Part shown: positions 42,553 through 59,454 of the stretch, in pieces | How positions within the stretch are numbered: the first letter of the stretch is position 1 | Layout of the letters: each line of letters starts with the position of its first letter | Translations under genes and position numbers: made by a program | From: Planctomycetota bacterium | Lineage (GTDB): Bacteria; Planctomycetota; SZUA-567; H5-PLA8 | Direction: 5' to 3' | DNA: 64,000 nt | Assembly: GCA_038227875.1 (NCBI GenBank) | Contig: JBBRPR010000017.1 | Span: 1-64,000, forward strand | Notes under the pieces: generated by a model | Seen by the model: the letters and a program-made list of their open reading frames with translations, nothing else | Databases searched by the model: none | Told to the model about the DNA's origin: nothing

Positions 42553-42557
42553 GAAGG

Positions 42558-42900
42558 GCAATTCAAAATTAAAAATTCAAAATTCAAAAACGCACGCGCT
42601 GGGAAACAGTTCGTGGGCTGAGTATCGTTCCACAGGTACTACACCACTATTAGTTGTGCTTCAGGCCAATTGGCCTGAAGGTTTAGGCCGTATTCGTTAC
42701 CGGTCAAATTTGACCGCTGGTTAATTTCCAACATGGGGAAAATTTTTCCTATGCTGTCCGACCTTGTCGACCATGGTCGACAGGGTTGCCTCGCGTCGTA
42801 CAGGCGACACGGCACGGATGAGCGAAGTCTTCGCTACGCTCAGACTTTTGCACATCCATGGCATAGTGTCTTCCGCGTGCGTTTTTGAATTTTGAATTGC
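42558..42900. repeat. MITE-like composite element: terminal inverted repeats enclosing an array of palindromes and a REP-like unit
   Basis: GCAATTCAAAATT..CAAAAACGCACGCG / CGCGTGCGTTTTTGAATTTTGAATTGC; palindromes at 42659-42680, 42701-42716, 42732-42753 and 42761-42786. Confidence 0.75.
42813..42865 (-). repeat. REP-like unit, third copy of the 62289-62437 family
   Basis: CACGGATGAGCGAAGTCTTCGCTACGCTCAGACTTTTGCACATCCATGGCA. Confidence 0.85.
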
Positions 42901-42902
42901 TT

Positions 42903-43493
42903 TCACGCCATTTCGTCGATAAACGGCTCGACCTGCTTGCGCCAGACCGCGTAGCCCGCGGGTGAGAGATGCAGCAGGTCTTCGGCGAAAAATTCATCTC
43001 GCGGGATGCCCTGCGCGTCCAGCATCGCTTCGAAAATGCTGATGTAGCGCGCGTTGGGCCAGTTCTTGAGCTCGGCCTGAACCATCGCGTTGACCTGTTC
43101 GATTTCCTTCCGCAGATGCGCGCGGTTCTTGCTCGGCTTGATCGACATGAACGCCACCGGCCGTCCCGGAAATGCGCGGGTGAAACGCGCCATGAAATCG
43201 CGGTAGGACGTGATTACGTCGTTGACCGACCGGCCGAGGCCGAGATCGTTGTCGCCGGCGTAGAGCACCACGGCGCGCGGCGCGTAGCGCAGGACCAGCC
43301 GGTCCATCAGTTCGACGCATTCGTTAAGCATTGAGCCGCCGAAGGCTCGGTTGATGATCGGCACGCCCGGAAAATCACGGTGGAGCGTCGTCCACATGCG
43401 GATTGACGAACTGCCGTAGAAGAGAATGGGGTGGGTGGGCGGTGGATCCTTGCGGTCTTCTTCGTCGTAGGCCTTCACTTCATTGTCGTACAT
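42903..43493 (-). CDS. SGNH/GDSL hydrolase family protein
   Basis: FYGSSSIRMW, NRAFGGS, YAGDND, DLLHL. Confidence 0.9.
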   Translation of the reverse strand: MYDNEVKAYDEEDRKDPPPTHPILFYGSSSIRMWTTLHRDFPGVPIINRAFGGSMLNECVELMDRLVLRYAPRAVVLYAGDNDLGLGRSVNDVITSYRDFMARFTRAFPGRPVAFMSIKPSKNRAHLRKEIEQVNAMVQAELKNWPNARYISIFEAMLDAQGIPRDEFFAEDLLHLSPAGYAVWRKQVEPFIDEMA

Positions 43494-43571
43494 GTTTGGC
43501 GCGAAACTCCTGAACGGGTGAATGCCACCACGTTACGGCGGAGCGAAGAAACGTCGAGCGCAGGCGCGGAT

Positions 43572-44240
43572 TCAAGAAATTGGCGCGGTGGCCGGGCCGT
43601 CCTGCGTGCGCAGCACGCGCTCGAGCACGGCTACCATTACGACACCCACAGGAAAGCACGCCAGTGTCATGCGGTGCAGCATCAGATAAGGCCGCTCGGG
43701 GTCGTCGACATAGCCGATGTCCAGCATCACTTTTCTGAACCAGTAAAACGGAACGTTGAAACAGATTCCATCCATGAGAATCACCGCCACACAAGCTCCA
43801 GCCGCGACGAGTCCCACCAACCGCGTGCCATACGCGAACGCAAAGAGCAGCTTTCGCAGGCGCTGAGTGTGCCCGCTGCGTTGCGCTGCGAGACAGCCGA
43901 CGACCAACCCAATCGCCTGGCACGCGGAAAACACAATCCCAACGAGAGGAAACCAGGAATCCAGCAGCGGCTTGAGAATCGCGAGCAGCAAGCCAAAATA
44001 GAGTCCCGCGAAGATCAGGTCCTCCAGCCGCAGATGCCAGAAGCCGCGCAGGTCGCTGGGCTCGCGTCGGTAACAACGTACCAGCGCGAGCGCGGAGATC
44101 AGTGTCAGTGGCGGCCAGATCCACCAGATGGGTGGAGCAATAGCCTGAGCCACGATGCTGAGCACAAGCAGTGTCAGTGTTCCGCCGGAACTCATGAACA
44201 ACAGTGCCGTCCAGATATTTTTCTGCCAGCGGACAGGCAT
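43572..44240 (-). CDS. Multi-pass membrane hypothetical protein
   Basis: About 6 hydrophobic segments; starts 2 nt after the ECF gene stop. Confidence 0.7.
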   Translation of the reverse strand: MPVRWQKNIWTALLFMSSGGTLTLLVLSIVAQAIAPPIWWIWPPLTLISALALVRCYRREPSDLRGFWHLRLEDLIFAGLYFGLLLAILKPLLDSWFPLVGIVFSACQAIGLVVGCLAAQRSGHTQRLRKLLFAFAYGTRLVGLVAAGACVAVILMDGICFNVPFYWFRKVMLDIGYVDDPERPYLMLHRMTLACFPVGVVMVAVLERVLRTQDGPATAPIS

Positions 44241-44242
44241 GA

Positions 44243-46285
44243 TCAGAATTCGTCCTTCTGGGGTTTCACGTCCGCGTTGTCCTGCGCCTTGGGAGCGTGC
44301 AGGTAGCGGATCATGCCGGCCGCCATTTCCTGGGTAAACGGATTGGAACTGGTGCTCCGTTTGGTCCAGCGCTCCTCCGCCATTTTCAAGGCCTCGGGTG
44401 CGGGTTGTTGTTCAGAGAGCAGTTTCGCCTGATCTTCGTCGAGCAGCGTGTCGTCCACTGTAAACCGCACGCCCAGGACCAGGTCACTTCCCGCCATTTT
44501 GCGAATGGCGTCGGGCATGGTTTCGGGCAAATCCAATTTGTAACCCAGCTTCGCCGTGACGATGCGTTTGTGATGGATCACGACGCCGCGTTCCACGTCG
44601 ACACTCACTTCCTCATCGCTCTGCCCGGTCAGCGATTTTGGCGCCAGCGTCAGCATCGTGGCTCCGATGTTCACGGATTCCTCAGGCAAAAGTTCGGGAT
44701 TCAGCGTGATGGGCGTCGGCCGCGATTTTAAAGTTGCGATCAGCCGGCCTTTCACGATCTCCAGATTTTCCAGCGTGTACTGAATGGGAAAATGGTATTT
44801 CTGCTGCAGCGATACGTCTGTTTGCCACGAATCGTTCACTGCGCGGGGCATGCCGCCGGTTGAACTGAACGGTGCCAGGCCGATATCGTTGAGCAGCAGA
44901 AAGCCGAGACCCACCTGGCCGAGCGTGAGCGTCGCGTTATCGAGTCCGGGAGACAAGACTTTGAATTGATGCGTGTCCGCGTCTTTCGTCGAGGCTACGC
45001 GGGTTGAACCGTCCGGGCGCCAGGTAATCCGGCATCCTGGCATCTTCGATTGGTCGTCGATCGAGTACGCGAAGAGATTCATCGGCGCGCGCGGCGCTTT
45101 GTCGACTTGGACGTTGTAATGGTTTGCGTTAAAGGCCTTGATACACGCGAATTTGAACGTCAGCTCGCCCTTGACCTTCGGCATCTCAGCCGGCGCTGCC
45201 GTGGTCACTTCATAAATCTGGCAGTCCGACATGTCGGGGATCAGGCCATCGATCACCGCCATAATTGGCGGCCGATCCGTGGTCGTTGTCTCTGTCAGGC
45301 GCTCATAGAGCAGCCGCCCTTTCAAAACCTGCGGACCAAAGCTGACGGTTTTCGGAATGACGAGCGGCAACGGTGCCGGCGCGGCCCCATTCGGCCCGTC
45401 CTTGTCTCCGTGCGTGACCGGAGCGCTTTCACCCGCGGCCAACTTCATCGTGACAGGCACTCCAATCAGTGCTGAAATGAGAAGTACGGCTGCGACGACT
45501 TTGATTTTCATCCAGAACAAGGCCTTCATCGTTCCCTCCGCAAGAGTTTTTGCACCCAACGTCGCTGTCGCGCCCGCCGTTCCGAGGCAGGCCGCGTGGA
45601 GGGAGGCGACAAAGTGCGGCGGCGCCGCGTGCGTGGCGTGATGTTCCAGCGCCAGTGCCAGAATCGCCGCCGGAACGGACGTTCCGGTCCCGGCGAAGCG
45701 CTGACGCAAGCGGTTGATCGCGCGCGACACGCGCGCCGAAAGAGTTCCGACCGGGCAGCCGAGCTCCTTGGCCGCTTCCGGTTCGGTCTTGCCCGCAAGG
45801 TAGCGCAGCACCACCGCGTCCCGCTCGGCTGATGGCAGAGCGTTAAGCAAGGTGTCGAGCTGCGGCTTCAACGTCTGCCAGACTTCGCTTTCGCCAGCCG
45901 CCTCTTGAATTTTCGCCCGCATCGCTGCTGCCTCCTGCTCATGCCTGGTACGCGTCCGACGCTCCCGGTTGGCGCGTTGCGCCACGTACACAGCCGTCCG
46001 GTAAAACCACGCGGAAAGCGGGGTATCCGGCCGGAGCGACGCGGCTTTCTGCGTGAAGACCAGGAACACGGCTTGTCCCGCGTCGTCGGCCAGATGCGGA
46101 TCGCCGACGATGCGCAGGCACGTGGCGTAGACCAGATCCGCGTGGCGCTGGATGATCTCCTGCAGCGCCTGCGGATCACGGTTCTTCGCATACTGTGCCA
46201 GCAGACTCGACATGTACGGCTCCCGACGCGAACTGACACGATTGGGCGGTTGAGCAGTTGTTGCGAGCACGTTGATCGCCTCCAT
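44243..46285 (-). CDS. ECF sigma-70 factor with TM segment and large extracytoplasmic C-terminal extension (planctomycete type); start uncertain
   Basis: RHADLVYATCLRIVGD..ADDAGQAVF, LSAWFY, ERDAVVLRYL..LGCPVGTLSARVSRA, TM VAAVLLISALIGV. Confidence 0.85.
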   Translation of the reverse strand: MEAINVLATTAQPPNRVSSRREPYMSSLLAQYAKNRDPQALQEIIQRHADLVYATCLRIVGDPHLADDAGQAVFLVFTQKAASLRPDTPLSAWFYRTAVYVAQRANRERRTRTRHEQEAAAMRAKIQEAAGESEVWQTLKPQLDTLLNALPSAERDAVVLRYLAGKTEPEAAKELGCPVGTLSARVSRAINRLRQRFAGTGTSVPAAILALALEHHATHAAPPHFVASLHAACLGTAGATATLGAKTLAEGTMKALFWMKIKVVAAVLLISALIGVPVTMKLAAGESAPVTHGDKDGPNGAAPAPLPLVIPKTVSFGPQVLKGRLLYERLTETTTTDRPPIMAVIDGLIPDMSDCQIYEVTTAAPAEMPKVKGELTFKFACIKAFNANHYNVQVDKAPRAPMNLFAYSIDDQSKMPGCRITWRPDGSTRVASTKDADTHQFKVLSPGLDNATLTLGQVGLGFLLLNDIGLAPFSSTGGMPRAVNDSWQTDVSLQQKYHFPIQYTLENLEIVKGRLIATLKSRPTPITLNPELLPEESVNIGATMLTLAPKSLTGQSDEEVSVDVERGVVIHHKRIVTAKLGYKLDLPETMPDAIRKMAGSDLVLGVRFTVDDTLLDEDQAKLLSEQQPAPEALKMAEERWTKRSTSSNPFTQEMAAGMIRYLHAPKAQDNADVKPQKDEF

Positions 46286-46401
46286 CCTACCCTCATATCC
46301 CTGCTCGCGGCAGCACCCCTGCGGGAAAAGCGCGGAAAAATGAAAAAGCACGGATTTGATCCGTGCTAAGCGAAGGGCCATAAGTGGTGAATCTGCGGGC
46401 G

Positions 46402-47730
46402 TTACCAGATGATCGGAATGGCGCCACCGTCGTCGACGGAGTAATTCCAGCGTTTCAAATACGTTTCCGCTGGCTGGAAGTCATCGTTGAAGCGCGCCAA
46501 TTCCTGCTTCAATCGCGCGTCCAATTGAGCTTGAAGCGCGGCGCAATCCGGGCGGCCGATGAGATTCGTGAGTTGGTACGGATCGCGTTCGTTGTCGTAG
46601 AGCAGCCAGGGACCGTCCAAATTTCGTGCGTACGTATGCCGGTGCGTGCGCAGTGTCCGCCACGGCAAGCCACGGTACTCGGCAAACGGAGCGATTGCTG
46701 CGGCGAGCGTGGCGTCAGGACCCACAAAGTCGCGGTTCAACACCGCGGCGGAAAGATCCAGACCGTCCACCGTCGACGGCACGGGTACGCCCAGCAGAGA
46801 CAGCAGCGTGGGCATCAGGTCCCAGACATTCAAGAGCGTGTTGACTCGGCTTCCCTTGGTGAATTGCTTCGGTGCACGGATCACAAATGGAACGTTGATG
46901 CTCTCTTCCCACGGATGTTGTTTGCGTTGAACGCCGTGACTGCGCAGCATGTCGCCGTGATCGCTGGTAAAAACAAAAATTGTCTTCTCCAGCTGACCGT
47001 TCTCAGTCAGTCCGCGCACCAGGCGGCCAATCTGTTCGTCCAGCGCTGTGACATGAGCGTAGTAGCCGCGCAACTCGTCCCGGTTGGGATTCGGGCAATT
47101 GGGTCGCACCGGCACGTCGGGCGGGTACAGGTCGAGAAATTCCTTGGGCACCTGATCGTAGGGATTGTGTGGCGGACCCCAGGACAGAAACAGCGCAAAA
47201 GGATCCGCGCCGCTTCGCTTTAAAAAGTCCAGAGCAACATCGGTCTGCGCGCGCGCGTCGTAGCCGTTCCAATGTTTCTTTTCAGTGGAGTCGCCGGAAT
47301 AGTAATGCGACTGCATGTAATTGTGATCGCAGTTGGCGACGGCCCAGAAATCGAATCCCTGGCGCCGCGGTCCGGGCGGCGTATAGGCCGAACGTTCATT
47401 GCCATCCAAATGCCATTTGCCAATGTAGCCGGTGCGGTATCCCGCTTCTTTCAATACGGTGCCGAATGTGGGGCGATCTGTTGGCAGGCGCAAATCGTTG
47501 ATGAACAACCCGTGCCGCAGCGGGTATTGGCCAGTCAGCATGCTCGCACGCCAGGGCGTGCAGACCGGCATGCCCGAAATGCAGTTCACGAATTCCAGTC
47601 CTTCGGCCGCGAGCTTGTCCAAGTTCGGTGAAATCACCGCGCGATTGCCGGAGTATCCCGTGGCTTCCGCGCGCATTTGATCGGCAAAAACAAAGACCAG
47701 ATTGTATTCGGGTCGACTCATCGTGGGCAC
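46402..47730 (-). CDS. Cys-type sulfatase
   Basis: FADQMR, VCTPWRASMLTG (CxPxR), GKWHL, PPHNPY, TSDHG. Confidence 0.93.
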   Translation of the reverse strand: MPTMSRPEYNLVFVFADQMRAEATGYSGNRAVISPNLDKLAAEGLEFVNCISGMPVCTPWRASMLTGQYPLRHGLFINDLRLPTDRPTFGTVLKEAGYRTGYIGKWHLDGNERSAYTPPGPRRQGFDFWAVANCDHNYMQSHYYSGDSTEKKHWNGYDARAQTDVALDFLKRSGADPFALFLSWGPPHNPYDQVPKEFLDLYPPDVPVRPNCPNPNRDELRGYYAHVTALDEQIGRLVRGLTENGQLEKTIFVFTSDHGDMLRSHGVQRKQHPWEESINVPFVIRAPKQFTKGSRVNTLLNVWDLMPTLLSLLGVPVPSTVDGLDLSAAVLNRDFVGPDATLAAAIAPFAEYRGLPWRTLRTHRHTYARNLDGPWLLYDNERDPYQLTNLIGRPDCAALQAQLDARLKQELARFNDDFQPAETYLKRWNYSVDDGGAIPIIW

Positions 47731-47823
47731 CTTTCAACAGTAAACGGCAGTCACGCTCTAATCACTCCACGCGTTGCGCGCAAGTCGCAGTTCCGCGTTC
47801 TTAAAGAACGTTTCACGGAAAAT

Positions 47824-47852
47824 TTGACAGTTTGCTGTTCGTGAGGTTGAAT
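47824..47852 (+). promoter_or_regulatory. Probable sigma-70 promoter of the tyrS leader
   Basis: TTGACA (47824-47829)-17 nt-TTGAAT (47847-47852). Confidence 0.5.
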
Positions 47853-47876
47853 GCCCTGGTCCGAATGGAGATCAAC

Positions 47877-47930
47877 ATGCTACGCGCGTTTTACGGCTAC
47901 GGATATCGATTCAACTCCCCCGTGGCGTAG
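47877..47930 (+). CDS. Tyr-rich attenuator leader peptide MLRAFYGYGYRFNSPVA
   Basis: SD GGAG at 47867-47870; TAC GGC TAC GGA TAT cluster; directly upstream of terminators and tyrS. Confidence 0.8.
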   Translation: MLRAFYGYGYRFNSPVA

Positions 47931-47953
47931 CGCGACTGTTTTGAATTTAGGCG

Positions 47954-47985
47954 AGCCATGGGTATGATCATCCCATGGCTTTTTT
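47954..47985 (+). terminator. Attenuator terminator 1
   Basis: AGCCATGGG-loop-CCCATGGCT followed by TTTTT. Confidence 0.85.
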
Positions 47986-48002
47986 GTTGGCGTAAATAAA
48001 GG

Positions 48003-48039
48003 GGCCATGGGATGCGCGGAAGCGTCTCATGGCCTTTTT
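48003..48039 (+). terminator. Attenuator terminator 2
   Basis: GGCCATGGGATGC-GCGGAA-GCGTCTCATGGCC followed by TTTTT. Confidence 0.8.
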
Positions 48040-48057
48040 AATTGAACGGAGGATGCA

Positions 48058-49365
48058 ATGCTGGGCGATGTCGTTCAGGAATTACGGTGGCGCGGGTTGT
48101 TGCAGCAGATGACCGACGAGACGCTCGAGAAGCGTCTGCTCCAGAATCCATTTACGCTCTACGCCGGTTTCGACCCGACGGCCGACAGCCTCGCGGCGCA
48201 TCACATGATTCCGCTGCTCAATCTCGCCCGCTTCCAGCGCGCCGGGCACAAGCCCATCGCGGTGGTCGGCGGCGGCACGGGGTTCATCGGCGATCCGTCG
48301 GGCAAAACTGAAGAGCGCCAGTTGCTCACCGCGGAGCAGCTTGAGGCCAACGTCGCCGGTCAGCGCAAGCAGATGGAGCGCTTCCTGGATTTCACGCCCG
48401 GTACGGCGCAGGCCTCCGTGCTGAACAACGCCGATTGGCTCTGCGGCATGAACCTGATCACGTACCTGCGCGACGTCGGCAAGCATTTCACGGTCAACTC
48501 GATGCTGGAGAAAGATTCCGTCCGCCGGCGCCTGGAAGATCGCGCACAGGGCATCAGCTACACGGAATTCAGCTACATGCTGCTGCAGGCGTACGATTTT
48601 TATCACCTCTTCAAGCACCACGGGTGCCGGCTGCAGATTGGCGGCAGCGATCAATTCGGCAACATCACCGCCGGCTGCGAATTGATCCGCCGCCGTCGTC
48701 CCGAAACCGAGGCGCATGAGACGTGGGGCGCATACGGTTTGACCACGACCCTGATTACCGATTCCAACGGCGAGAAAATCGGCAAGACCACGAAAGGCGC
48801 GCTGTGGCTGGATCCGAACAAGACGACGCCGTTCGATTTCTACCAGTACTGGATCAACACCAGCGACGCCGACGCCATCAAGTACGTCCGTTACTTCACC
48901 GACGTGAACGAAGCCGACGCGCAAGCCGGCGAGGCCGATCACGCCAAGGACCCGGGCAAGCGTTTGCTGCAGAAGAAGCTCGCCCGCTTCATGACGGAGC
49001 TGGTTCACGGCGTGACGGAACGGGAGAACGCACAGAAGATGACCGACGATCTTTTTACCAAGTCGGTAAAAGACCTCGACGAAGCTGCGCTCTTGAACCT
49101 TGTGAAAGATGCTTCGAGTTCGACACTCTCGCGATCGCGGTTGGAAGGCGAAGGGATGCCAATTATCGAGTTGCTTGCAGAAGCTACCAAACTGTGGGCA
49201 TCAAAGGGCGAGGCGAAGAAGTCGATTCAAGGCAACGGAGCGAATCTCAACGACGTTCGAGTGACTGATCTTCAGAAAAAAGTGACGACGGCTGAGCTGC
49301 TCCATGGCAAGTACTTGGTGCTGCGGAAGGGGAAGAAAGACAATCATCTGGTGAAGGTGGAATGA
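48058..49365 (+). CDS. tyrS: Tyrosine--tRNA ligase
   Basis: YAGFDPTADSL, GDPSGK, EFSYMLLQAYD, QIGGSDQFGNI, KIGKT, S4-like LRKGKK. Confidence 0.97.
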   Translation: MLGDVVQELRWRGLLQQMTDETLEKRLLQNPFTLYAGFDPTADSLAAHHMIPLLNLARFQRAGHKPIAVVGGGTGFIGDPSGKTEERQLLTAEQLEANVAGQRKQMERFLDFTPGTAQASVLNNADWLCGMNLITYLRDVGKHFTVNSMLEKDSVRRRLEDRAQGISYTEFSYMLLQAYDFYHLFKHHGCRLQIGGSDQFGNITAGCELIRRRRPETEAHETWGAYGLTTTLITDSNGEKIGKTTKGALWLDPNKTTPFDFYQYWINTSDADAIKYVRYFTDVNEADAQAGEADHAKDPGKRLLQKKLARFMTELVHGVTERENAQKMTDDLFTKSVKDLDEAALLNLVKDASSSTLSRSRLEGEGMPIIELLAEATKLWASKGEAKKSIQGNGANLNDVRVTDLQKKVTTAELLHGKYLVLRKGKKDNHLVKVE

Positions 49366-49395
49366 ACGATTAGCTGGTCATATCAAGCCGACGGG

Positions 49396-49436
49396 ACTTC
49401 GTCGGGAGCGACGCCAATCACGGCTCCCGACGAAGT
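49396..49436. terminator. 14-bp hairpin after tyrS (terminator or REP-like)
   Basis: ACTTCGTCGGGAGC ... GCTCCCGACGAAGT, with only a short T tail. Confidence 0.55.
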
Positions 49437-49518
49437 TTAAAATAATTCATAATCTTCCGTCACATTTCGATCCCACTGCATCTTGAGTCTGAGTGAATGA
49501 GAGAGGTGTGGAGGAAAA

Positions 49519-50781
49519 ATGTCGCTCAACGAATGGCTGGAGTCGGCTCGCGGCGGAAATCTCGACGCCTTTGAACGGCTCATGGATGCGACGCAAGGCA
49601 TGGTCTATGCCGTCGTGCGCCGCATTCTGATCGACCGTGAAGACGCGGCGGATGCCGTTCAGGAGACCTACGTCCGGGCGTTTGGAAAGCTGTCGGAGAT
49701 TCGGAATCCAGACTCCTTTCCGGGATGGCTCAGGCGTATCGCGGTGACGACTGCGATGGGTCTCCAGCGTTCTCGCCGTAACCACTTTGTTGAGTTCGAC
49801 GACGATCTGCACATTCCCATTCTGGACGATCAGGAAACACGCTGGAGCGAATTTCAGCACGCGGCGATGGCAGAAGCCATCGTCAAGCTCGGCGAGAGCG
49901 ACCGGCTGCTGTGTGAACGCTTTTATCACGGCGGCTGGCCCCTGGCGCGACTGGCGGAAGATCTGGAAATTTCGGAAAGCGCCGTGCGCAAACGCCTCCA
50001 GCGCATCCGCGAACACTTGCGAAAGGATATTGAAATGAACGAACAACGAACACTGGCCGGCGAACACCTGCCAGGAAATCTGCCGCGGAAAGTGATTGAG
50101 CTGCTGGCCCGTCCCCGGCTCACCACCATTCCGGAAAATCCGGTGGGCCGCATCTGGCATCTAATCCAATCGCACCTGCCCAAGTCCGTGGACATGGACG
50201 TTTCGGAAACGGTGACCGACGAGCAAGTGCGGGAGATGCTCGGCGACTTATATGACGCCGGTTCTGACATCGGAGGGGGGCAGGGCATTCATCGCGTCGA
50301 CGACGCGCAACACCTCCGCGCCGAAATCACGCTGCCGTTGCTGCTGGCGTGCCGCGGGCGCAGCGGGCCTCAGTCGATCGTGAGCGCTGGGAAAGTCTAC
50401 CGGATTGCGAAAGTCGGACCCGCTCACATGGAATCCTTTCATCAAGGCGAATGGCTGAACGTTAGCGAGTCGGCCTCGCTCTGGGACTCGATGGGCCTGA
50501 TCAGCGGAATGATCAAGGGGCTCTATCCCGACAAGGCGATCCGCTGGGAGAAAGTTCAGCTTCCTCTGTGCGAGGAAGCGTGGGAACTCTTTGTGGACTG
50601 GAACGGCAAGTACGTCGCGGTGCTGGGGTGCGGCCGCTACAAGGATCGGATCGTGGAGTACCTCGGCAACGATCCCCGTCGATTTACCGCTATCGGCGCG
50701 GGCTTCGGTTTGGAGCGCATGGCCTGCGCTCACTTCGGGATCGATGACATTCGCAAGGTGGAGGGAATCCGGCTGAGTTGA
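49519..50781 (+). CDS. ECF sigma-70 factor fused to a PheRS-alpha-like (class IIc aaRS) catalytic domain
   Basis: aa 1-172: DAADAVQETYVRAF, FPGWLRRIA, LAEDLEISESAVRKRLQRIR. C-terminus: GKVYR..H..FHQGE, VLGCG, GFGLERMA..FGIDDIR. Confidence 0.85.
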   Translation: MSLNEWLESARGGNLDAFERLMDATQGMVYAVVRRILIDREDAADAVQETYVRAFGKLSEIRNPDSFPGWLRRIAVTTAMGLQRSRRNHFVEFDDDLHIPILDDQETRWSEFQHAAMAEAIVKLGESDRLLCERFYHGGWPLARLAEDLEISESAVRKRLQRIREHLRKDIEMNEQRTLAGEHLPGNLPRKVIELLARPRLTTIPENPVGRIWHLIQSHLPKSVDMDVSETVTDEQVREMLGDLYDAGSDIGGGQGIHRVDDAQHLRAEITLPLLLACRGRSGPQSIVSAGKVYRIAKVGPAHMESFHQGEWLNVSESASLWDSMGLISGMIKGLYPDKAIRWEKVQLPLCEEAWELFVDWNGKYVAVLGCGRYKDRIVEYLGNDPRRFTAIGAGFGLERMACAHFGIDDIRKVEGIRLS

Positions 50782-50826
50782 AGCACGAACTTGGGGATCG
50801 TGAAATGCGGTCCCCAGGTTCGACTC

Positions 50827-51267
50827 TCATCCCGCCAACTTCGTGCGAAATTCCTTCGGCGTGTAGAACTGGTGCGACTTCTCGTCGAGCAGCGTGGCAC
50901 CAAACTGCTCAAATATCTGCACGTACAGCCGGTAAAAAATGCGCTGTTCCGCGCCGCTGCGGGCGTTGATGGTGATGACTTCGCCGGGCTTCGGCGGTCC
51001 TTGCTCGAGATGCACTTTCAGGACCACGCCGCCTTCGACTTCCCAGAGCAGTTTGACGTTGCTGTCGGTGGCCGCCTGATCCCATGGCGCAGCCGGGATT
51101 TTGGTCATGTGCGGAACTTCCATCAGCTTCTCGGTAACGGAGTTCAGTGAGCCGAGCGAATGAAGTTCGATGGGCAGAATGGTGGTGTCTTTGGGTGGTA
51201 TGGGATCGGGTTTCCAGAACGAAAACTGCGCGATCTCTGAATTGTGACTGGAATGATTGTCTGACAC
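50827..51267 (-). CDS. Hypothetical protein
   Basis: SD AAGGAGG before GTG; GC3-biased 146-aa ORF. Confidence 0.75.
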   Translation of the reverse strand: MSDNHSSHNSEIAQFSFWKPDPIPPKDTTILPIELHSLGSLNSVTEKLMEVPHMTKIPAAPWDQAATDSNVKLLWEVEGGVVLKVHLEQGPPKPGEVITINARSGAEQRIFYRLYVQIFEQFGATLLDEKSHQFYTPKEFRTKLAG

Positions 51268-51423
51268 GAGAAGCCTCCTTCGCCCGCCAAGTCCGCTCCC
51301 CCTCCAAAGCCCTCACGCAACACGTACCCTATCCCTAAGCAAAATATACACCATAGTTATCGACGTGGATGCAGACCAAGTGGGCAGAATTGGACAATAA
51401 AATGAGGCACGTGTGCAACGGCC

Positions 51424-51624
51424 GGACGGATGGCATCGGGGATCAGGTAACAGGCATCGGTTAATGGGCGTGCTTACCGTGTCGATCTATTTTATTGCGA
51501 GTTGAGGACGTCCATCAAATCTTGAAGAGTGCCTTCAACTCGCAGCAGCATTGGATTCAACAGCCGTGCACGCCCATTAACCGATGCCCGAGGCCCGATG
51601 CCCGACCCCCGATCCCATCTGTTC
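51424..51624. repeat. ~200-nt nested inverted-repeat element with heptamer (CCGATGC) arms
   Basis: Perfect 21-bp IR 51453-51473 / 51568-51588; inner IR 51496-51505 / 51535-51544. Confidence 0.8.
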
Positions 51625-51632
51625 TGTTCGTT

Positions 51633-53621
51633 CTAGTACTCCACCTGCGCCACTCCGTAGAGCTTCGGCGTGCTGACACTAAAGGTCAGCGTTCCATTGC
51701 GGACGGCGCTCTTGATCTCCTTAGCGACCGGATGATCCTGATGCGGGTCGGTGAGGGTGACGCGCGCTTTTTTGCAGCCAGCGGGAAGTGCGACGGTGGC
51801 CGTCATCCGCGGTTTGACGTTCGCGGCGTTGTAGTTGATGAAATGCAGATCGACACCGCGGCTGGCACGGATGGCTTCGACGAAGACATGGTCGTTGCCG
51901 GTGACGTGGTGTGACAGCGGCTGTTCGCCGGCAGCATCGGCGATGGCTTTCAGGAAAACCTTCCGGTTCTTCACCGGCGCCAGCGCTTCGCCGCTGATCG
52001 CAAACCAATCGGAGATATTCCAGGCGGTGAGCACGTCCCAGGTCGGGACGTAGACGAGGCAACCGTTCCCCACCGGAGACTTCACGTACTTATCCGAGGG
52101 CTCTTTCATCCACTTGCCCAGTCCGCGCGACCATTCGCGCGGGCGATACCACTCGTTAAATTGCACGGCCTTGCCGGAGACAATCACGCCACCGCCGGCG
52201 CGCATAAATGCATCCAGCGCGTCGATCCACGCGTCGGGGATCGCTTGAATTTCGGGCAGCGCGACGATGCGGTACTTCGACAACTGATCGATCTGCTTGT
52301 TGAAGATGATGCCCCACGGCAGCTTCTCGACGGCCAGCGTCTGCTCGAAGGCGATCAGTTGTTCGTGAACCTTGGCGCAATTGTAATTCGTCGACGGTTC
52401 GCTGCGGAAGACGGCGATGTCGTGAAGGTGTTCGCGTTCGTGGTAGAGCGCCTGGTTGGCGCGCAGAAACTGCGTGACCGGCGTGAACGCCATGCAGTCG
52501 CCAATGCCGCCGATCCAGCCGTGGCCTTCGATCTTCTTGCGGTAACCGTAGACCTGGCTTTCGACAGCAGCCATCTCGTCGTGCGGTTCGTCCACGACGC
52601 CAATATGCGTGACGTGCGACGACTTCCACAACCGCACTTCGCTGACGACCTGCCCGCCTTTGACGCCGGGGCTGTAGCCGTCGATGCAGGTGAAATCGAG
52701 AATGTCGGTGAACGCGCCGTGGCAGATGCCGTTGTCGAAGGCGCGGTTGTTACCGTGAATGCCCTTGATGTTCATGCCCACGGCCGTCGTCGGCGACTGC
52801 TTCTTCACGTAGTTGGCCATCTCCGCGTAGAATTCCACCACGGACGTGATGCGGTGATCGATCCAATCCTGCATTTGCGGCAGGACAATCCGGTCCATGC
52901 GCCAGGGTTTGTTGGCCTGGCTCCAGACGGGAGGCATCACGTCCGGATGCTCCGCGAAGCCGTAGCGAATGAGGCATTGTTCGGGCGTGTACTTCGCGCG
53001 CACCATCTCACGCAGATGCGCGACGCAATGTTTGCAGCGGCACGAACGCGGTTCGTGGCGCAGGATCTGGTTGTCGAAGAAAATCTCGTCGGCCTTGACT
53101 TCCTGAACCGCGACGTCCAGCACACGTTTCACATACGCGCGGTAGCCGGGGTTGCGCAGGCACGGAAACCAGCGCTGCAATTGGTAGCCGCTGTACGTGA
53201 CGGGTTGTCCGTCCTGATCTTTGCGCGCCCACTCGATGGCCTCCGGAACTTCCTTGAAGAAGTAATCCGTGAACATCGTCCCACCTACATAGACCGAGAC
53301 GAGTAGCCCGTGAGCTCGGGCTCGTTCGGCATACTGAATTGTCTTTTCGATCGACGAGCGTTCGTAGGTCAGCCCGGCACCTTTAAAGAAGTGCGCGCGA
53401 TCGGGAATTTGAATCCCCGTCGCCGCCATGCGTTCCACATTTTCCTCGGATTGATAACCTTCACTGCGGCGGATGTCCCGTTCGCTGGCCGTGCCGCGGT
53501 TGCGGTAAAACCAGGTGGGTTCGTGCGTGGGCCAGAGGACCGACTTGGCGGTCTCCTGAATCGCTGAAAGATCAGTGGGGAAAGGACGTGCAGGATCATT
53601 GCGCAACCATTTTTTAGACAT
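51633..53621 (-). CDS. Putative glycoside hydrolase-like protein (TIM barrel plus GH42-type trimerisation-like domain)
   Basis: PCLRNPGYRAY, ADEIFFDN, SCRCKHC, YRIVALPE..FMRAGGGVI, VDLHFINY. Confidence 0.6.
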   Translation of the reverse strand: MSKKWLRNDPARPFPTDLSAIQETAKSVLWPTHEPTWFYRNRGTASERDIRRSEGYQSEENVERMAATGIQIPDRAHFFKGAGLTYERSSIEKTIQYAERARAHGLLVSVYVGGTMFTDYFFKEVPEAIEWARKDQDGQPVTYSGYQLQRWFPCLRNPGYRAYVKRVLDVAVQEVKADEIFFDNQILRHEPRSCRCKHCVAHLREMVRAKYTPEQCLIRYGFAEHPDVMPPVWSQANKPWRMDRIVLPQMQDWIDHRITSVVEFYAEMANYVKKQSPTTAVGMNIKGIHGNNRAFDNGICHGAFTDILDFTCIDGYSPGVKGGQVVSEVRLWKSSHVTHIGVVDEPHDEMAAVESQVYGYRKKIEGHGWIGGIGDCMAFTPVTQFLRANQALYHEREHLHDIAVFRSEPSTNYNCAKVHEQLIAFEQTLAVEKLPWGIIFNKQIDQLSKYRIVALPEIQAIPDAWIDALDAFMRAGGGVIVSGKAVQFNEWYRPREWSRGLGKWMKEPSDKYVKSPVGNGCLVYVPTWDVLTAWNISDWFAISGEALAPVKNRKVFLKAIADAAGEQPLSHHVTGNDHVFVEAIRASRGVDLHFINYNAANVKPRMTATVALPAGCKKARVTLTDPHQDHPVAKEIKSAVRNGTLTFSVSTPKLYGVAQVEY

Positions 53622-53941
53622 GGAATCTCCTGAAGAAGTGACGGCGGCTTTTGGCGAGTCGTGCCGCTAAGTCAAAGGATCCCCGCCCAACCGACGAGGA
53701 CTCCCAATAACCAAGAGCCAATAGCTTAGAGCCAATCTGTTCTGAATACAGCACACCTGTGGCGTAGTTAGTACAATAATACGAAACTTTTTGTTCTGTG
53801 CTTGAGGAAAACCCCCAATCTCCTTACCGTGCTTGCCCACAATGCGTGAAATCGCGGAAAAAGTCGGCAAGGTCTGATAGTCACATTCGTTAGTGTACCG
53901 GCAAATAGTCTCTCAGCCGGGCTCTGGAGGTCGATTCAACG

Positions 53942-56900
53942 ATGATTCGCGGCAGCAAATCCCCCTTCGTAAATTACTGTAAGTGGATTCCGGTCACCGC
54001 CTTAAGCTGCTTTCTCGGCGGCACCATCGCCACCTCCGTTCATGCCGAACAGGACTTTGAATACGCCAAGCTGCTCGTTGAGCGTGACGAACAAAGTTTC
54101 CCGACCGACGACATCATCGGACGGCTGATCACCAAGCTGCTGGAAACGCCGAGCACGCAGTTGGAAGGCAAGCTGATCAAGGCCACCTTCCTGCGCCATC
54201 AGGCCGCGACCTCCAGCTCTGAAAAGAAGAACAAGCTGCTGACGGAAGCCAACGACCTCTATAAAGAGGTGCTTGCCGGCGACAAGAAGTTCCGCCTGAT
54301 GTCCGTCGCCGAACGCGATGCGGCGAGCATGACGTCGGAAATGATCCGCGCCCAGATCGACCTGGCCGGCAACGACAAGGTTAAGGCCCGCGAACTCCGC
54401 GCCCAGGCGGCGAGCAACCAGGAAATCATCGCCAACGCGCAGAAGACGAACATCGACGCGGCCGAACCGAAATTCGTCGCCGAATTCACCAAGTACACTG
54501 AATACGTCAAGACGCACACGGATCAGGAATCCGGCGAAGTCAAGCCGCCGTATCCCAACGGGCAGATGGACGCCCTGATGAAGACGTTCGACGAATGGAT
54601 CATCGCCGACAAACGCTACGTCGCCGCGAAGGTCGAACAGATCAACTGCTACGACGACTCCGATCCCGCGAAGAAAGCCGCGGCCGAAGTGATGGCCAAG
54701 TACTGCGACGAAAAGATCAACAACGAAAAGCTCGCCGACTTCCCCGTGATCACGTCGTGGTACTCGTTCATGCAGGGCCGCATTTACGGGCTCGTCGGCG
54801 ATGACGAAAAAGCCAGCGCATCGTGGGGCACGGCGCTCGGGCTGGAAATGCAGCATCTCAATGACGACCAGCGCAAGCAGATGTTCCAGCTCAAGAAGTT
54901 CATCATTCACGATTTGATCAAGATGAACATGAAGGGCAAGAAGTACGCCGCGGTCGAAGAATACATTGCCACCTCGCTGATCGATCCCGTGCTGCGCACG
55001 CTCTTCGACGACGATTCCGGCAAGGACCTGCTGATCGACTACTCCAAGGCGCTGACGTTCAAGGATGGCGCCGACCAGTCGGACGTCGAAAAGGCGATCA
55101 AGAAGCTGCGCGAGCAGATCGAAAAGGAAAAGGGCGTCAACTCCGTCTGGGCGGCGCGCTTCTCCCGCGCGATGGCCGAAGTCCTCGACTACGCCCGCAG
55201 CCACAAGGGCATGATGCCCCGCCTCAGCGGCCAGGAATGGTACGACGCCGCGCGCGGCTTCTTCGTGATGGGCCAGACCGAACATCAGAAGTACGTCGAA
55301 ATGGAACGCGACGCCAAGGGCGATCCGAAGAACAAGGAGCAGTTCGAAAAGGCGTACACGGAATTCCAGAACGCCGTCGACTTCTACCGCCGCGCCGTCA
55401 CCGCTGCGCGGTCGGCCGATCTCCTTACCCGCGTCACCGTCGAACCGAAGGCCTGGTTCGAAATGGGACTGTGTTACCTGAAGATGCGCCATTACTACGA
55501 AGCGATCGTGGTCTACCAGGCGATGCGCAATACGTTCCTGCCGGAATTCCGCGGCAAGTTGCTCCCTGAGCCCACCAGCGCCGACTACAAGAAGTTCGTC
55601 ACCAAGGCCGTCAAAGACGCCATTGAAGAATTGGACAAGCCCAAGGACGGCCTGATCGCCAAGTCCGGCTCGAACGTGCTTTACGCGTTCGAAGAAAACA
55701 AGAAGCTCCACAATGGCGCCGGCGACATGTGGAACAAGGCGCTGCAGGGCAAGGTGCTCTCGACCGACACCAGCCTGATCAAGGACAGCGGCATCTCCGA
55801 CATCGCCTACACCCAGGCGCGCACGACGATGGACGAAGCCAAGAGCTTCTCGGACAACGGCAAGTTCAATGCCAAGGACGCGAAGCTCTCCGAGGACGCG
55901 TACGGCCAGGCGCTGACCAAGTACACTGCCGCTGCCGAGAAATTCCTGAAGGTGGCGCCGACTTCCGACGCCTACGAAATCGCACTCTTCCAGGCTGGCT
56001 GCTGCTACAACTACGCGCAGGGCATCTGGTCCGACAAACTTCCCAGCCGCCGTGCCGACGCGGAAGCCGCGATCAAGGATCTCGGCGCCAAGGGCGTGGC
56101 CGCGTTCGACAAGTACATGGAGTACGTCGCCAAGAACGCCGCCAAAAAGGACGAAGACAAGGACCGCCGCAAGAAACTCGAAGGCGAAGTGTTGCTGGTC
56201 CGCAATGCGTTGAGCTTCGGCATGCAGGACTGGCCGATGACGCTGAAGACCGCCGACGAATACCTGAACTGGGAAAAGGATAATCCCACCAACAGCAAGA
56301 AGGACGCGGCGATGCTGAATAAGTTCGTCGCGCTGATCTCGCTGGCCGCGCAGAACTTCGCGCCGAAGTCCGATCAGTTCCTGAAGGACGCCGAAGCGGT
56401 GATGCGCGACGTCCGCGTCATGAAGCCCAAGGACAACAAGCTCTTCCGCACCATGCTCGACCAGCTCGGCCGGCGCTACAACATCGCCGCCTTCCAGGTC
56501 GACAAATTCCTGAAGGAAAATCACACCGACGTCACCACCGACATGCAGGACCTGTACGAAGACAAGGTCGCTGAAATCCAGCTGGAACGCGTCACGGTGG
56601 TGGAAGAAGAAGCCAACCCCAACGAAGAAGTCTCGCTGGAAGATTACAGCCGCCTGGTCTACCTCTTCGACAAAGCCAGCCACCGCGTGAAGGACCGCGA
56701 GAAGGCCACGTCGATGCAGGAGAAGTCGGCCGAAATGGCCAAGAAGCTGCTCGACAAGTACGACCCGACGAAGAAGAACCTGCGCATTCCGGAAGACAAG
56801 GACGCCTGGCAGCCGCTGCTGAACAGAATGATCGGTGACAACCAGACCGTACGCGGCCTGCTGCGCATCCAGGAAGACTTCAAGGGCGACGTCAACCGCC

Positions 56901-57904
56901 GCGATCAGTGCAAACGCGACCACTCCACGCTGATCGACTACATGTACGACACCGTGCCGCAGGACACGCCGGCCGACAAGCGCCCGGACTACGACAAGCA
57001 GAAGACCGATTTGGAAAAGGCACGCCAGCAGCTCAAGACGATCCGCGATAATTACCCGAACATCCCGACGCTGGCCGATAAGGCCGGCAATGTCAGCGCC
57101 GCCGCGGCTGCGGTCGTCACCGACTGGATCGATGCGGTAAAAGAAAAGTATCCGGATCTCGAGCAGCTCAAGCCGAAGAAGGGCGAACCGGCCAAGGCGC
57201 CGCTGCAGATCATTGAAGAAGAAATCGATTTCCGCCGCAAGATCGAAGCCACCCGCGACCTGCTCTCGCGCCAGTCGCTGGAACTGGCCGAAAAGTACGC
57301 CAAGGGCGGCAACAACGACAGCGCCAAGAAGTTCCGCGAAATCGCCAGCGAGCAGATCAAGATCCTCGGCGACCTGCGCGGCGATACCCCGGTCATGATG
57401 GAACAGACCGCCGAACTGGACATGGCCGACGGCAAGTACAAGGAAGCCGAAGAGACGCTGTGGAAGATTGCCGACAACGCCGACAAGGATTCGGATACAT
57501 ACTTCCGCGCCAAGCGCAAGCTCTCCGAAATCTTCGCCAACCAGAAGAAGTGGCGCGAAGCGGCGGAGTTCCCGGAATACATCGCGCTGGTCGTCGGCGT
57601 CAAGGGCAACCGCCCCAAGCGCCTGTGGCCGGACATGGCCTCGTTCCTGGAAGAATGCTACAAGAACGGCGCACCGCGTCCCGCCGCGCTGAAACTCGAT
57701 GGGTCCGACGACGTCAAGGACGTGAAGAAGGACGACGTGAAGAAAGACGACGTCAAGAAGGATGAACCCAAGGCCGACGCGCCGAAGGCGGACGCACCGA
57801 AGACCGACGAGAAGAAAGCCGACGAACCCAAGGCCGAAGAGAAAAAGGCCGACGAGAAGAAACCGGAAGAGAAGAAAGCTGACGAACCGAAGACGGACAA
57901 GTAA
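53942..57904 (+). CDS. Large secreted helical-repeat (TPR-like) protein with charged repetitive tail
   Basis: Signal peptide, AWFEMGLCYLKMRHYYEAI and ALFQAGCCY TPR-like helices, KKDDV/KADEP tail. Confidence 0.8.
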   Translation: MIRGSKSPFVNYCKWIPVTALSCFLGGTIATSVHAEQDFEYAKLLVERDEQSFPTDDIIGRLITKLLETPSTQLEGKLIKATFLRHQAATSSSEKKNKLLTEANDLYKEVLAGDKKFRLMSVAERDAASMTSEMIRAQIDLAGNDKVKARELRAQAASNQEIIANAQKTNIDAAEPKFVAEFTKYTEYVKTHTDQESGEVKPPYPNGQMDALMKTFDEWIIADKRYVAAKVEQINCYDDSDPAKKAAAEVMAKYCDEKINNEKLADFPVITSWYSFMQGRIYGLVGDDEKASASWGTALGLEMQHLNDDQRKQMFQLKKFIIHDLIKMNMKGKKYAAVEEYIATSLIDPVLRTLFDDDSGKDLLIDYSKALTFKDGADQSDVEKAIKKLREQIEKEKGVNSVWAARFSRAMAEVLDYARSHKGMMPRLSGQEWYDAARGFFVMGQTEHQKYVEMERDAKGDPKNKEQFEKAYTEFQNAVDFYRRAVTAARSADLLTRVTVEPKAWFEMGLCYLKMRHYYEAIVVYQAMRNTFLPEFRGKLLPEPTSADYKKFVTKAVKDAIEELDKPKDGLIAKSGSNVLYAFEENKKLHNGAGDMWNKALQGKVLSTDTSLIKDSGISDIAYTQARTTMDEAKSFSDNGKFNAKDAKLSEDAYGQALTKYTAAAEKFLKVAPTSDAYEIALFQAGCCYNYAQGIWSDKLPSRRADAEAAIKDLGAKGVAAFDKYMEYVAKNAAKKDEDKDRRKKLEGEVLLVRNALSFGMQDWPMTLKTADEYLNWEKDNPTNSKKDAAMLNKFVALISLAAQNFAPKSDQFLKDAEAVMRDVRVMKPKDNKLFRTMLDQLGRRYNIAAFQVDKFLKENHTDVTTDMQDLYEDKVAEIQLERVTVVEEEANPNEEVSLEDYSRLVYLFDKASHRVKDREKATSMQEKSAEMAKKLLDKYDPTKKNLRIPEDKDAWQPLLNRMIGDNQTVRGLLRIQEDFKGDVNRRDQCKRDHSTLIDYMYDTVPQDTPADKRPDYDKQKTDLEKARQQLKTIRDNYPNIPTLADKAGNVSAAAAAVVTDWIDAVKEKYPDLEQLKPKKGEPAKAPLQIIEEEIDFRRKIEATRDLLSRQSLELAEKYAKGGNNDSAKKFREIASEQIKILGDLRGDTPVMMEQTAELDMADGKYKEAEETLWKIADNADKDSDTYFRAKRKLSEIFANQKKWREAAEFPEYIALVVGVKGNRPKRLWPDMASFLEECYKNGAPRPAALKLDGSDDVKDVKKDDVKKDDVKKDEPKADAPKADAPKTDEKKADEPKAEEKKADEKKPEEKKADEPKTDK

Positions 57905-57911
57905 GCGCAGC

Positions 57912-57936
57912 GCGGGCGCACCGCCCGCCTTTTTTT
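57912..57936 (+). terminator. Intrinsic terminator-like hairpin between the two TPR-like genes
   Basis: GCGGGCG-CAC-CGCCCGC-C-TTTTTTT. Confidence 0.5.
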
Positions 57937-57999
57937 CGGCCGGGCGGCCTGACGGTCACATCTGAATACTTGAGCAAAGGTACGACAAGGAGTTCCATC

Positions 58000-59388: not shown

Positions 59389-59407
59389 CGGCGAGGACTG
59401 AGGACTG

Positions 59408-59439: not shown

Positions 59440-59454
59440 ATTAATTAAGACGCT

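Follow-up and report, generated by a model that had tools for sequence, protein, structure and literature searches.

The 64,000-nucleotide stretch of contig JBBRPR010000017.1 from a Planctomycetota bacterium (assembly GCA_038227875.1), which we call the window, encodes a 420-residue protein that combines an extracytoplasmic function (ECF) sigma factor with the catalytic core of the α-subunit of phenylalanyl-tRNA synthetase (PheRS). The protein belongs to a conserved and apparently undescribed family. We propose that it is a one-component, self-amplifying ECF sigma factor gated in cis by its nucleotide- or adenylate-binding PheRS-derived domain, an explanation for which we consider the case to be about evenly balanced. 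The fusion had been noticed previously in an inspection of the DNA without database searches (the sequence-only reading). New are the conserved self-promoter of the family, the origin of the fusion in a single event, and its patchy distribution.

The open reading frame (ORF) of the fusion gene and the elements within and around it are listed in Table 1. The N-terminal part of the protein is composed of sigma regions 2 and 4. The Pfam profile Sigma70_r2 scores 41.1 bits at residues 22–80 (cut-off 24), and the NCBIfam model TIGR02937 for ECF sigma factors covers residues 16–169 with 81.7 bits (cut-off 42.9). The Pfam profiles of region 4 remain slightly below their cut-offs, with 24.7 bits for Sigma70_r4_2 at residues 135–167 (cut-off 25.7) and 23.6 bits for Sigma70_r4 at residues 129–169 (cut-off 24.1). 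Neither Sigma70_r3 nor Sigma70_r1 matches the protein at E-values up to 1 (Pfam). Regions 2 and 4 without regions 1.1 and 3 (Pfam, NCBIfam) are the composition that defines ECF (group 4) sigma factors. The C-terminal part matches the class II synthetase profile tRNA-synt_2d at residues 267–414 (75.2 bits, cut-off 19.8, E 7.3e-21). The best sequence matches among solved structures are bacterial PheRS α-chains (6p8t_C, 3.3e-15), followed by ECF sigma factors such as SigL (7e-09).

The AlphaFold model of the fusion protein, computed with 121 relatives, has a mean predicted local distance difference test score (pLDDT) of 82.6. The C-terminal domain mostly exceeds 90, and the linker between sigma regions 2 and 4 is predicted with low pLDDT. 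Residues 205–420 of the model superimpose on the PheRS α-subunit of Escherichia coli (3pco_A) with a Z-score of 25.6 and a root-mean-square deviation of 2.1 Å over 213 residues. The Z-scores of the mitochondrial PheRS, SepRS, and PylRS are 24.7, 21.9, and 20.6, respectively, and the structural alignment with the mitochondrial PheRS begins at model residue 186. Pfam, NCBIfam, and the AlphaFold model confirm the fusion of a complete ECF sigma factor to a PheRS-like core, and the C-terminal domain matches both class II profiles and the PheRS-α fold, as the sequence-only reading had anticipated. The PheS-like part begins around residue 186, with the helix preceding the HP(L/V) motif, and includes a conserved entry helix and loop, LPxKVVELLARPxLTxLPENPVG. 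The N-terminal coiled-coil arm that binds tRNA in PheRS is absent, and its place is taken by the sigma domains. The linker joining the two domains of the fusion protein is itself conserved in the family alignment.

Key residues of the class II active site are retained. R295 (the motif-2 arginine), F307, Q309, E311, W355, G372, G397, L398, and R400 (the motif-3 arginine) are invariant in 121 of 121 sequences, and H308, C351, G393, G395, and E399 are near-invariant. That R295, F307, Q309, E311, G397, L398, and R400 never vary speaks for a functional site that takes a nucleotide or adenylate. The surroundings of this site are remodeled relative to E. coli PheS: Cys351 replaces T251, the invariant Trp355 replaces A255, and Gly393 replaces A294, the site of the specificity-relaxing pheS substitution A294G. 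The FPF loop of PheS reads LPL in the window protein and x-P-M in most relatives (x-P-Met/Leu overall). The PheS segment NIPxxHPARDxxDTF(Y/F/W) is missing or replaced in all 46 fused domains that were aligned, basal and crown lineages included, and the canonical and mitochondrial-type PheRS sequences in the same alignment retain it. The acidic residue two positions past the motif-2 arginine is present in basal lineages and absent from the crown family. On the NCBIfam equivalog model for pheS, TIGR00468, the fusion scores 76 bits against a cut-off of 237.45.

The sequence-only reading had placed motif 2 at 50,389–50,451, which corresponds to residues 291–311 of the ORF, and had described a mixture of retained and lost residues. 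Alignment with E. coli PheS agrees with this description: R195 and R301 correspond to R295 and R400, F248-P249-F250 aligns with Leu-Pro-Leu (3pco_A), E268 of EVLGCG aligns with alanine, and RNDYDQTH, the acidic loop of motif 2, is matched by RIAKVGPAH. The losses are real in the window copy. However, it is more eroded than the family consensus, with GPAH in place of DATH in the motif-2 loop and alanine in place of the glutamate before VLGCG. Because most relatives keep those residues, some of the losses are peculiar to the window copy or its sub-branch. The further proposal of a pseudo-enzyme sensor is only partly upheld: the domain is indeed not a canonical PheRS, but the invariance of its ligand-site residues leaves the status of a pseudo-enzyme unestablished. 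The alignment indicates that the nucleotide- or adenylate-binding skeleton is under strong purifying selection, and that the side-chain pocket and the tRNA-handling parts were rebuilt or dropped. This pattern is unlike that of a decaying pseudo-enzyme, and it is no proof of catalysis either. The aromatic amino acid, adenylate, or uncharged tRNA that the sequence-only reading had put forward as ligand are candidates.

The family comprises at least 120 homologues; those listed all have 415–435 residues, carry PF01409 and PF04542, and show 42–50% full-length identity. In a scan of one genome per species, relatives are encoded in 499 of 546 candidate stretches; the best 80 of the 499, together with the window, make up a set of 81 loci. 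The best 80 loci belong to Acidobacteriota (Vicinamibacterales, Bryobacterales, and Solibacteraceae), Planctomycetota (Phycisphaerales), Polyangiaceae, Steroidobacteraceae, and Latescibacterota, and the family spans at least five phyla. Paludibaculum fermentans (L050, Bryobacterales) is a cultured carrier among them. The ESM Atlas holds three clusters of identical architecture, with 92, 152, and 57 members. A search of 1.84 billion representatives with the C-terminal domain alone gave 108 matches at E-values up to 1e-10, of which the full-length ones are again sigma fusions. Apparent stand-alone C-terminal domains of approximately 230–270 residues, one of which opens with 'MRKRLQRIRD...', have their start within sigma region 4 or the linker and are therefore most likely gene fragments. 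Three further candidates for non-fusions were discarded: P0245 proved to be a mitochondrial-type PheRS, and both P0202 and P0251 are fusions with a truncated N-terminus. Public annotation of the homologues reads only 'sigma-70 family RNA polymerase sigma factor'.

The distribution of the family is sparse and patchy. A search with the C-terminal domain alone found the gene in none of 300 other genomes sampled from the phylum of the window. Further searches found it in none of 300 genomes of a sample drawn as the phylum of G001, and in one of 120 genomes sampled from the order of the acidobacterial carrier G003. The six carriers with a reported genome size have genomes of 5.2–10.1 Mb. A canonical pheS gene is also present in all six carrier genomes checked, and the fusion is therefore a paralogue and not a replacement. 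In the window genome, a draft of 9.3 Mb in 176 contigs that is 88% complete, the canonical pheS (C23:40316–41071) is adjoined by pheT (C23:39122–39319), which is absent from the window. Since this pair lies on a contig other than that of the fusion gene, no β-subunit gene is nearby, in agreement with the sequence-only reading. The canonical pheS of carrier G004 (C11:818413–819214; L103, L104) is split into two overlapping Pfam pieces in different frames, likely owing to an assembly frameshift.

All 46 fused domains form a single clade in a quick IQ-TREE maximum-likelihood tree (SH-aLRT 99), which also contained seven canonical and two mitochondrial-type PheRS sequences and should be read with caution. 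The fused domains branch beside bacterial PheS, and a crown clade of 33 fused domains with support of 100 includes the window protein. The simplest reading of the tree is a single ancient fusion. A divergent basal clade (P0154, P0158, P0160, P0189, and P0222) consists of sigma/PheRS-like fusions with 24–31% identity. Their synthetase part is more PheS-like, with the HP(L/V) motif and, in P0154, RVFRxD and WPFTDPG, and the linker motif PVLDExETRW falls below consensus in this clade (alignment A3). A metagenome scan for DNA of the basal clade (A3; generic patterns) gave a fusion at one of 80 loci, L127, which belongs to the crown family and has the usual promoter. The 596-residue protein P0214 is composed of an ECF sigma factor, a PheRS-like domain, and a C-terminal GNAT domain (Acetyltransf_7, E 3.6e-06), a possible sign that the protein acts on a derivative of an amino acid.

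The fusion genes are preceded by a conserved promoter motif. Upstream regions of 300 nt were collected from 76 of the 81 loci, anchored on the first residues of the protein; the other five, in which the match began beyond residue 25 or was too near the end of the locus, were left out. Every combination of a 5-mer with a 4-mer at a distance of 14–19 nt was counted. Of the 76 regions, 70 contain the pair GTCAC...TGTC, which is absent from all 76 reverse complements; the spacer is exactly 16 nt in 69 cases and 17 nt in one. In the loci examined, the motif ends approximately 18–30 nt 5′ of the start codon. The 68 distinct sites give the extended consensus tGTCAC(A/G)nT-N12-GTGTCYTt, which corresponds to GTCAC(A/G)-N14-GTGTCYT in the notation used for the window. 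Positions outside the selected pair are also conserved, namely the T at +7 (63/68), the G before TGTC (56/68), and the Y and the T that follow TGTC (67/68 each). Bipartite promoters with −35 and −10 elements and a spacer of about 16–17 nt, often autoregulatory, are typical of ECF sigma factors, and the family motif is of this kind. A scan for sigma-70-type promoters found no site at 49,300–51,400 of the window.

Six regions lack the exact motif: the window, four Planctomycetota loci (L003, L027, L048, and L072), and L071, a partial match that has no motif. The window and the four Planctomycetota loci keep GTCACA and have −10 elements altered to GCATCYT, CGTCYT, or TGACTT. The −10 element of the window differs from the consensus at two of seven positions and its spacer is 1 nt shorter than usual; in L003, the closest relative, the element reads GCATCCT and the spacing is normal. 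The altered elements in Planctomycetota could reflect co-variation with sigma region 2.

The motif is also specific at the level of the genome. Five genomes of 5.2–10.1 Mb each contain the strict pattern a single time, always before the fusion gene, and the backward control gave two hits in total. Since the motif precedes 70 of 76 genes and is unique in each of these five genomes, the gene appears to be positively autoregulated from an ECF-type promoter, and this co-occurrence and genomic uniqueness suggest that the promoter is recognized by the gene's own sigma factor. A relaxed pattern gave 16 hits in the five genomes against 14 in the backward control. Ten of the 11 non-self hits overlap ORFs of at least 80 residues and one is clear of any. 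In the window genome, the self-promoter is the only intergenic match of the relaxed pattern that precedes a credible gene; the six loose hits are close to our own estimate of the chance expectation, and the best non-self hit lies inside an ORF of 616 residues. We therefore discarded a wider regulon, as relaxed hits stay at background level, with the limit that weaker or divergent target promoters may escape the pattern.

The genes around the fusion do not include a conserved partner. All ORFs of at least 80 residues within approximately 6 kb of the 81 fusion genes were clustered, and five clusters were scanned with Pfam. No widely shared neighbor or anti-sigma candidate was found among these ORFs. 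The largest cluster, a MacB/FtsX-type permease, is present at 19 of 81 loci in varying position and strand. Genes for an ATP-dependent DNA ligase and a DJ-1/PfpI protein come after the fusion gene in one acidobacterial sub-lineage (L005, L006, L011, L034, L038, L042, L077, L078, and L080), and that of a 5′-3′ exonuclease comes before it in eight of the nine loci (all but L042), an arrangement that is probably plain synteny among close relatives. The gene directly upstream in the window is tyrS, and the sequence-only reading had suggested looking for this linkage in other genomes. The linkage did not hold up: no TyrRS homologue flanks the fusion gene at any of the 80 related loci, and a hairpin separates the two genes in the window. 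The adjacency is a local accident. The hairpin looks like the tyrS terminator, which would insulate the fusion gene, and was passed over by a simple terminator scan owing to its loop of more than 8 nt. Linkage to tRNA genes was rejected as well, because such genes occur at two of 46 loci only (Leu and Ser) and are unrelated, and none lies at 40,000–60,000 of the window. Rfam gave no match at the gathering score across the whole window, and thus no T-box or other leader.

Table 1 Features of the fusion gene and its surroundings in the window.
Feature	Position	Strand	Description
tyrS, class I tyrosyl-tRNA synthetase	48058..49365	+	Pfam tRNA-synt_1b E 3.8e-74 and SYY_C-terminal; upstream neighbor, outside the system
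16-bp hairpin followed by UUUAAAAUAA (U/A-rich)	49394..49438	+	−32.8 kcal/mol, z −4.16, 0/200 shuffles as good
Predicted ECF-type self-promoter	49459..49484	+	GTCACA (−35, 49459–49464), 13 nt, GCATCTT (−10, 49478–49484)
Ribosome-binding site GGAGG	49510..49514	+	4 nt 5′ of the ATG (sequence)
ECF sigma/PheRS-α-like fusion ORF (P0001)	49519..50781	+	420 residues, ATG start, frame uninterrupted
Sigma region 2	49582..49758	+	Residues 22–80; Pfam Sigma70_r2 E 1.5e-10; family-invariant T25, D45, Q48, R72, R73
Sigma2–sigma4 linker	49780..49848	+	Residues 88–110; crown-family motif PVLDExETRW; D103, E106, W109 invariant
Sigma region 4	49903..50025	+	Residues 129–169; Pfam Sigma70_r4 and r4_2; invariant C132, R134, Y136, G138, K158, R159, R162, R164
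PheRS-α-derived class II catalytic core	50074..50778	+	Residues 186–420; tRNA-synt_2d E 7.3e-21, model superposition
Class II motif 2 (GKVYR...FHQGE)	50389..50451	+	Residues 291–311; R295, F307, Q309, E311 family-invariant
Class II motif 3 core (GFGLER)	50701..50718	+	G397, L398, R400 invariant

Three other ORFs of the window deserve mention. A convergent ORF of 146 residues directly downstream of the fusion gene (50,827–51,267, minus strand) has a weak hit to DUF5894 (E 0.007) and is not conserved beside the relatives. A second unusual ECF protein of 712 residues is encoded at 44,243–46,381 on the minus strand. It contains Sigma70_r2 (residues 76–141) and r4_2 (173–224), followed by a hydrophobic helix and approximately 430 residues without a Pfam match, and appears to be a sigma factor fused to a membrane-anchored extracytoplasmic domain. 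The ORF at 53,942–57,904 on the plus strand encodes a protein of 1320 residues that has a single weak match to TPR and ends in a tail of short repeats rich in Lys, Asp, Glu, and Pro (KKDDV..., PKADA..., EKKADE...).

In the mechanism that we favor, the N-terminal 180 residues form a working sigma2–sigma4 module that would recognize the family promoter GTCAC(A/G)nT-N12-GTGTCYT directly upstream of its own gene, and a sigma factor reading its own promoter would establish positive autoregulation. Since no anti-sigma factor or other partner is conserved, the C-terminal 235 residues would exert control in cis. They are a PheRS-α core stripped of all that the charging of tRNA-Phe needs: the coiled-coil arm, an adjacent β-subunit gene, the HPARD...DTF segment, and the FPF loop. 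The core retains the class II residues for a nucleotide or adenylate: the motif-2 arginine, the stacking phenylalanine, the glutamine, the glutamate, and the motif-3 arginine. We hypothesize that the C-terminal domain packs on sigma2, sigma4, and the conserved linker, and that occupancy of its pocket by ATP or an aminoacyl-adenylate-type ligand alters the packing. The change could convert the sigma factor between an inactive form and one able to engage the promoter or core RNA polymerase, in either direction, and the autoregulatory loop would amplify the decision.

Prediction of a complex between the sigma part (residues 1–182) and the C-terminal domain (187–420) gave a score of 0.53, classed as 'weak support', and the best of three controls scored 0.01. 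The mark for support is reached by 116 of 157 solved complexes and by two of 215 mismatched pairs; scores up to 0.60 account for only 18 of the 157 solved complexes and for both passing mismatches. At least 69% of the contacts are common to the prediction runs, and the pLDDT of the partners is at least 83. We know of no solved complex similar to that of a sigma factor and a PheRS-like domain. As both halves belong to one polypeptide, the prior for an interaction is favorable, and we count the docking as modest support only.

A number of observations weigh against this mechanism. The docking score sits in the weak band. No target besides the gene's own promoter was found in the five genomes and the window genome; because the only visible target is the gene itself, there is no obvious output, which favors explanations in which the C-terminal domain itself acts. 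The invariant catalytic arginines are as compatible with an active enzyme as with a sensor, and the evidence that this sigma factor would read the motif consists of co-occurrence and uniqueness. The window copy deviates in the −10 element, the spacer, the motif-2 loop, and the glutamate before VLGCG, and may work differently or less well than its relatives.

A more daring version of ligand control, which we rate as improbable, is that the family represents sigma factors with a class II adenylating or adenylate-binding site of their own, in which promoter choice is set directly by an amino acid, by a dinucleoside polyphosphate, or by an aminoacyl-adenylate (or a naturally occurring inhibitor of synthetases that imitates one). 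No anti-sigma factor, kinase, or alarmone synthetase would then stand between the ligand and the choice of promoter. In its boldest form, the domain would be catalytic while on the polymerase and make a signaling or initiating nucleotide in situ.

The alternatives differ in what the C-terminal domain is thought to do. It may be a functioning class II enzyme that adenylates a new substrate, part of a BirA-like bifunctional enzyme and regulator, which passes an (amino)acyl-adenylate to an acceptor other than tRNA or makes a dinucleoside polyphosphate; the sigma part would then mainly set the level of the enzyme by autoregulation, perhaps with the adenylate as effector. We consider this reading unlikely, yet it has appreciable weight. 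It would account for the invariance of the class II arginines, the stacking phenylalanine, and the motif-2 glutamine and glutamate in 121 of 121 sequences, and for a pocket that is remodeled and not decayed, with a near-invariant Cys351, an invariant Trp355, and Gly393. The fusion gene as the only detectable target of the motif makes the protein itself look like the output, and the additional GNAT domain of P0214 is what would be expected if a reactive amino-acid derivative were handled. However, the HPARD...DTF(Y/F) segment, universal in PheS, is missing from the 46 fused domains, and neither the acidic residue two positions past the motif-2 arginine nor the glutamate of FPFTEPS is conserved in the crown family. 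No gene for an acceptor, a carrier protein, or a transferase is conserved nearby, and PheRS-α alone is inactive without the β-subunit. The domain could instead bind a macromolecule, PheT or tRNA-Phe, and report PheRS assembly or tRNA charging, with the bound partner acting as anti-sigma factor or activator. This is improbable. The derivation of the domain from bacterial PheS, its preserved core, of which the motif-1 region (the site of subunit interfaces in class II enzymes) is part, the lack of a dedicated anti-sigma gene nearby, and the existence of synthetase-like sensors of uncharged tRNA such as the HisRS-like domain of GCN2 speak for it. Nevertheless, the protein lacks the coiled coil with which PheRS holds tRNA, the gene is linked neither to pheT nor to a tRNA gene, and the invariant small-molecule-binding arginines would be left unexplained.

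Two further explanations have less weight still. Class II synthetase cores serve as dimerization scaffolds, and the C-terminal domain could be a ligand-free structural or oligomerization module, a dimerizer or stabilizer, of a sigma factor that is controlled transcriptionally by something else. A scaffold, however, needs no invariant R295, F307, Q309, E311, and R400 across phyla at 42–50% identity, and we rate this explanation as improbable. That the gene is an assembly chimera, a frameshift fusion, or a pseudogene has a vanishingly small probability, as the full-length architecture recurs in hundreds of independent assemblies, megabase contigs included, the frame is uninterrupted, and the inter-domain linker is conserved. 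In particular, this recurrence clearly rules out a singleton assembly chimera, about which the sequence-only reading had cautioned.

Cis-gated sigma factors of the kind that we favor have precedents. The family is one of ECF sigma factors with a regulatory C-terminal extension, modeled by ECF41 and ECF42, and at the same time one of regulatory aminoacyl-tRNA synthetase paralogues. The anti-sigma gene that typically lies alongside an ECF gene was not found among the ORFs of at least 80 residues near the fusion genes, as in other ECF groups with C-terminal extensions, and the model in which an ECF sigma factor bears a regulatory extension and has no anti-sigma factor, put forward in the sequence-only reading, is sensible. 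ECF41 (Ecf41 of Bacillus licheniformis and Rhodobacter sphaeroides; mycobacterial SigJ) resembles the fusion in having no anti-sigma factor, a fused C-terminal control domain, and a tiny regulon. The linker motif of ECF41 is WLPEP, whereas that of the fusion family is PVLDExETRW. The ECF41 extension is SnoaL_2-like, whereas that of the fusion is a PheRS-α core of approximately 235 residues, and no SnoaL-type Pfam match was found in the fusion protein at E-values up to 1. SigJ is not among the 42 structure matches listed for the fusion protein. The target of ECF41 is an adjacent COE gene (carboxymuconolactone decarboxylase, oxidoreductase, or epimerase), whereas the predicted target of the fusion is its own gene; no COE gene lies beside the fusion genes in the five neighbor clusters scanned with Pfam. 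The experimentally validated ECF41 signature consists of a −35 element TGTCACA, a spacer of 16 nt, and a −10 element CGTC, with a minimal regulon (PMC3426412; supplement of PMC7826278). The −35 element matches that of the fusion family, in which GTCAC is fixed by the selection of the motif and is followed by A or G. The −10 element of the family is (G)TGTCYT, with TGTC in 70 of 76 regions, and CGTC is present only in L048 and L072. Another group, ECF288 of Firmicutes, shares with the fusion the predicted −35 element TGTCACA and the lack of an anti-sigma factor, and its predicted −10 element is TGTCTAAT (supplement of PMC7826278). Unlike the fusion family, the ECF288 group as described there has a Cys-rich extension of approximately 100 residues, is restricted to Firmicutes, and has a DUF2461 neighbor.

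On the synthetase side, the fusion shares with PheS the core fold, motifs 2 and 3, LR...T, FHQxE, GxGLER, and DDIR. It differs from PheS in scoring below the TIGR00468 cut-off, in lacking the coiled coil, the HPARD...DTF segment, and the β-subunit gene, and in the replacement of the equivalents of FPF, T251, and A294. SrmL (NF051887, 'PheS-related mystery ligase') is another family of PheS-derived paralogues, which the fusion matches partially at residues 283–413 with 60.6 bits. The SrmL cut-off of 300 is far above this score, and SrmL is not fused to a sigma factor according to the description of the model; no paper using the term was found among the top-ranked literature matches. BirA is both a biotin protein ligase and the repressor of the bio genes, with the adenylate as effector. 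It provides a functional analogy only, as it combines an adenylating fold similar to that of class II synthetases and a DNA-targeting module on one polypeptide, with an adenylate effector. BirA differs from the fusion in its winged-helix repressor domain and proven catalysis, and the two have no sequence relationship. HisZ and the HisRS-like domain of GCN2 are likewise cases of a synthetase core reused as a sensor or regulatory module, but they derive from HisRS, act on ATP phosphoribosyltransferase or a kinase, and involve no sigma factor.

A full-text literature search found no published description of a fusion between an ECF sigma factor and a PheRS-like domain, consistent with the statement in the sequence-only reading that no characterized ECF sigma factor has this architecture. 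The main text of the ECF re-classification paper mentions neither tRNA nor synthetases, and its supplement, as far as accessible, names tRNA synthetases only as neighbors. A review of non-canonical ECF sigma factors does not mention them either.

ECF sigma factors with fused sensors are the 'one-component systems' of the sigma world, and only a handful of the signals to which they respond have been identified. With a PheRS-derived extension, the family would add a new class of sensor and, at the same time, a new class of regulatory aminoacyl-tRNA synthetase paralogue, of relevance to researchers of both sigma factors and synthetase evolution. The family is large enough for co-evolution analysis. 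Its sharply defined, genome-unique promoter offers a ready reporter and, for synthetic biology, a sigma/promoter pair that is potentially orthogonal. Should an amino acid or adenylate indeed bind in the pocket, the chemistry of translation would be tied directly to promoter selection.

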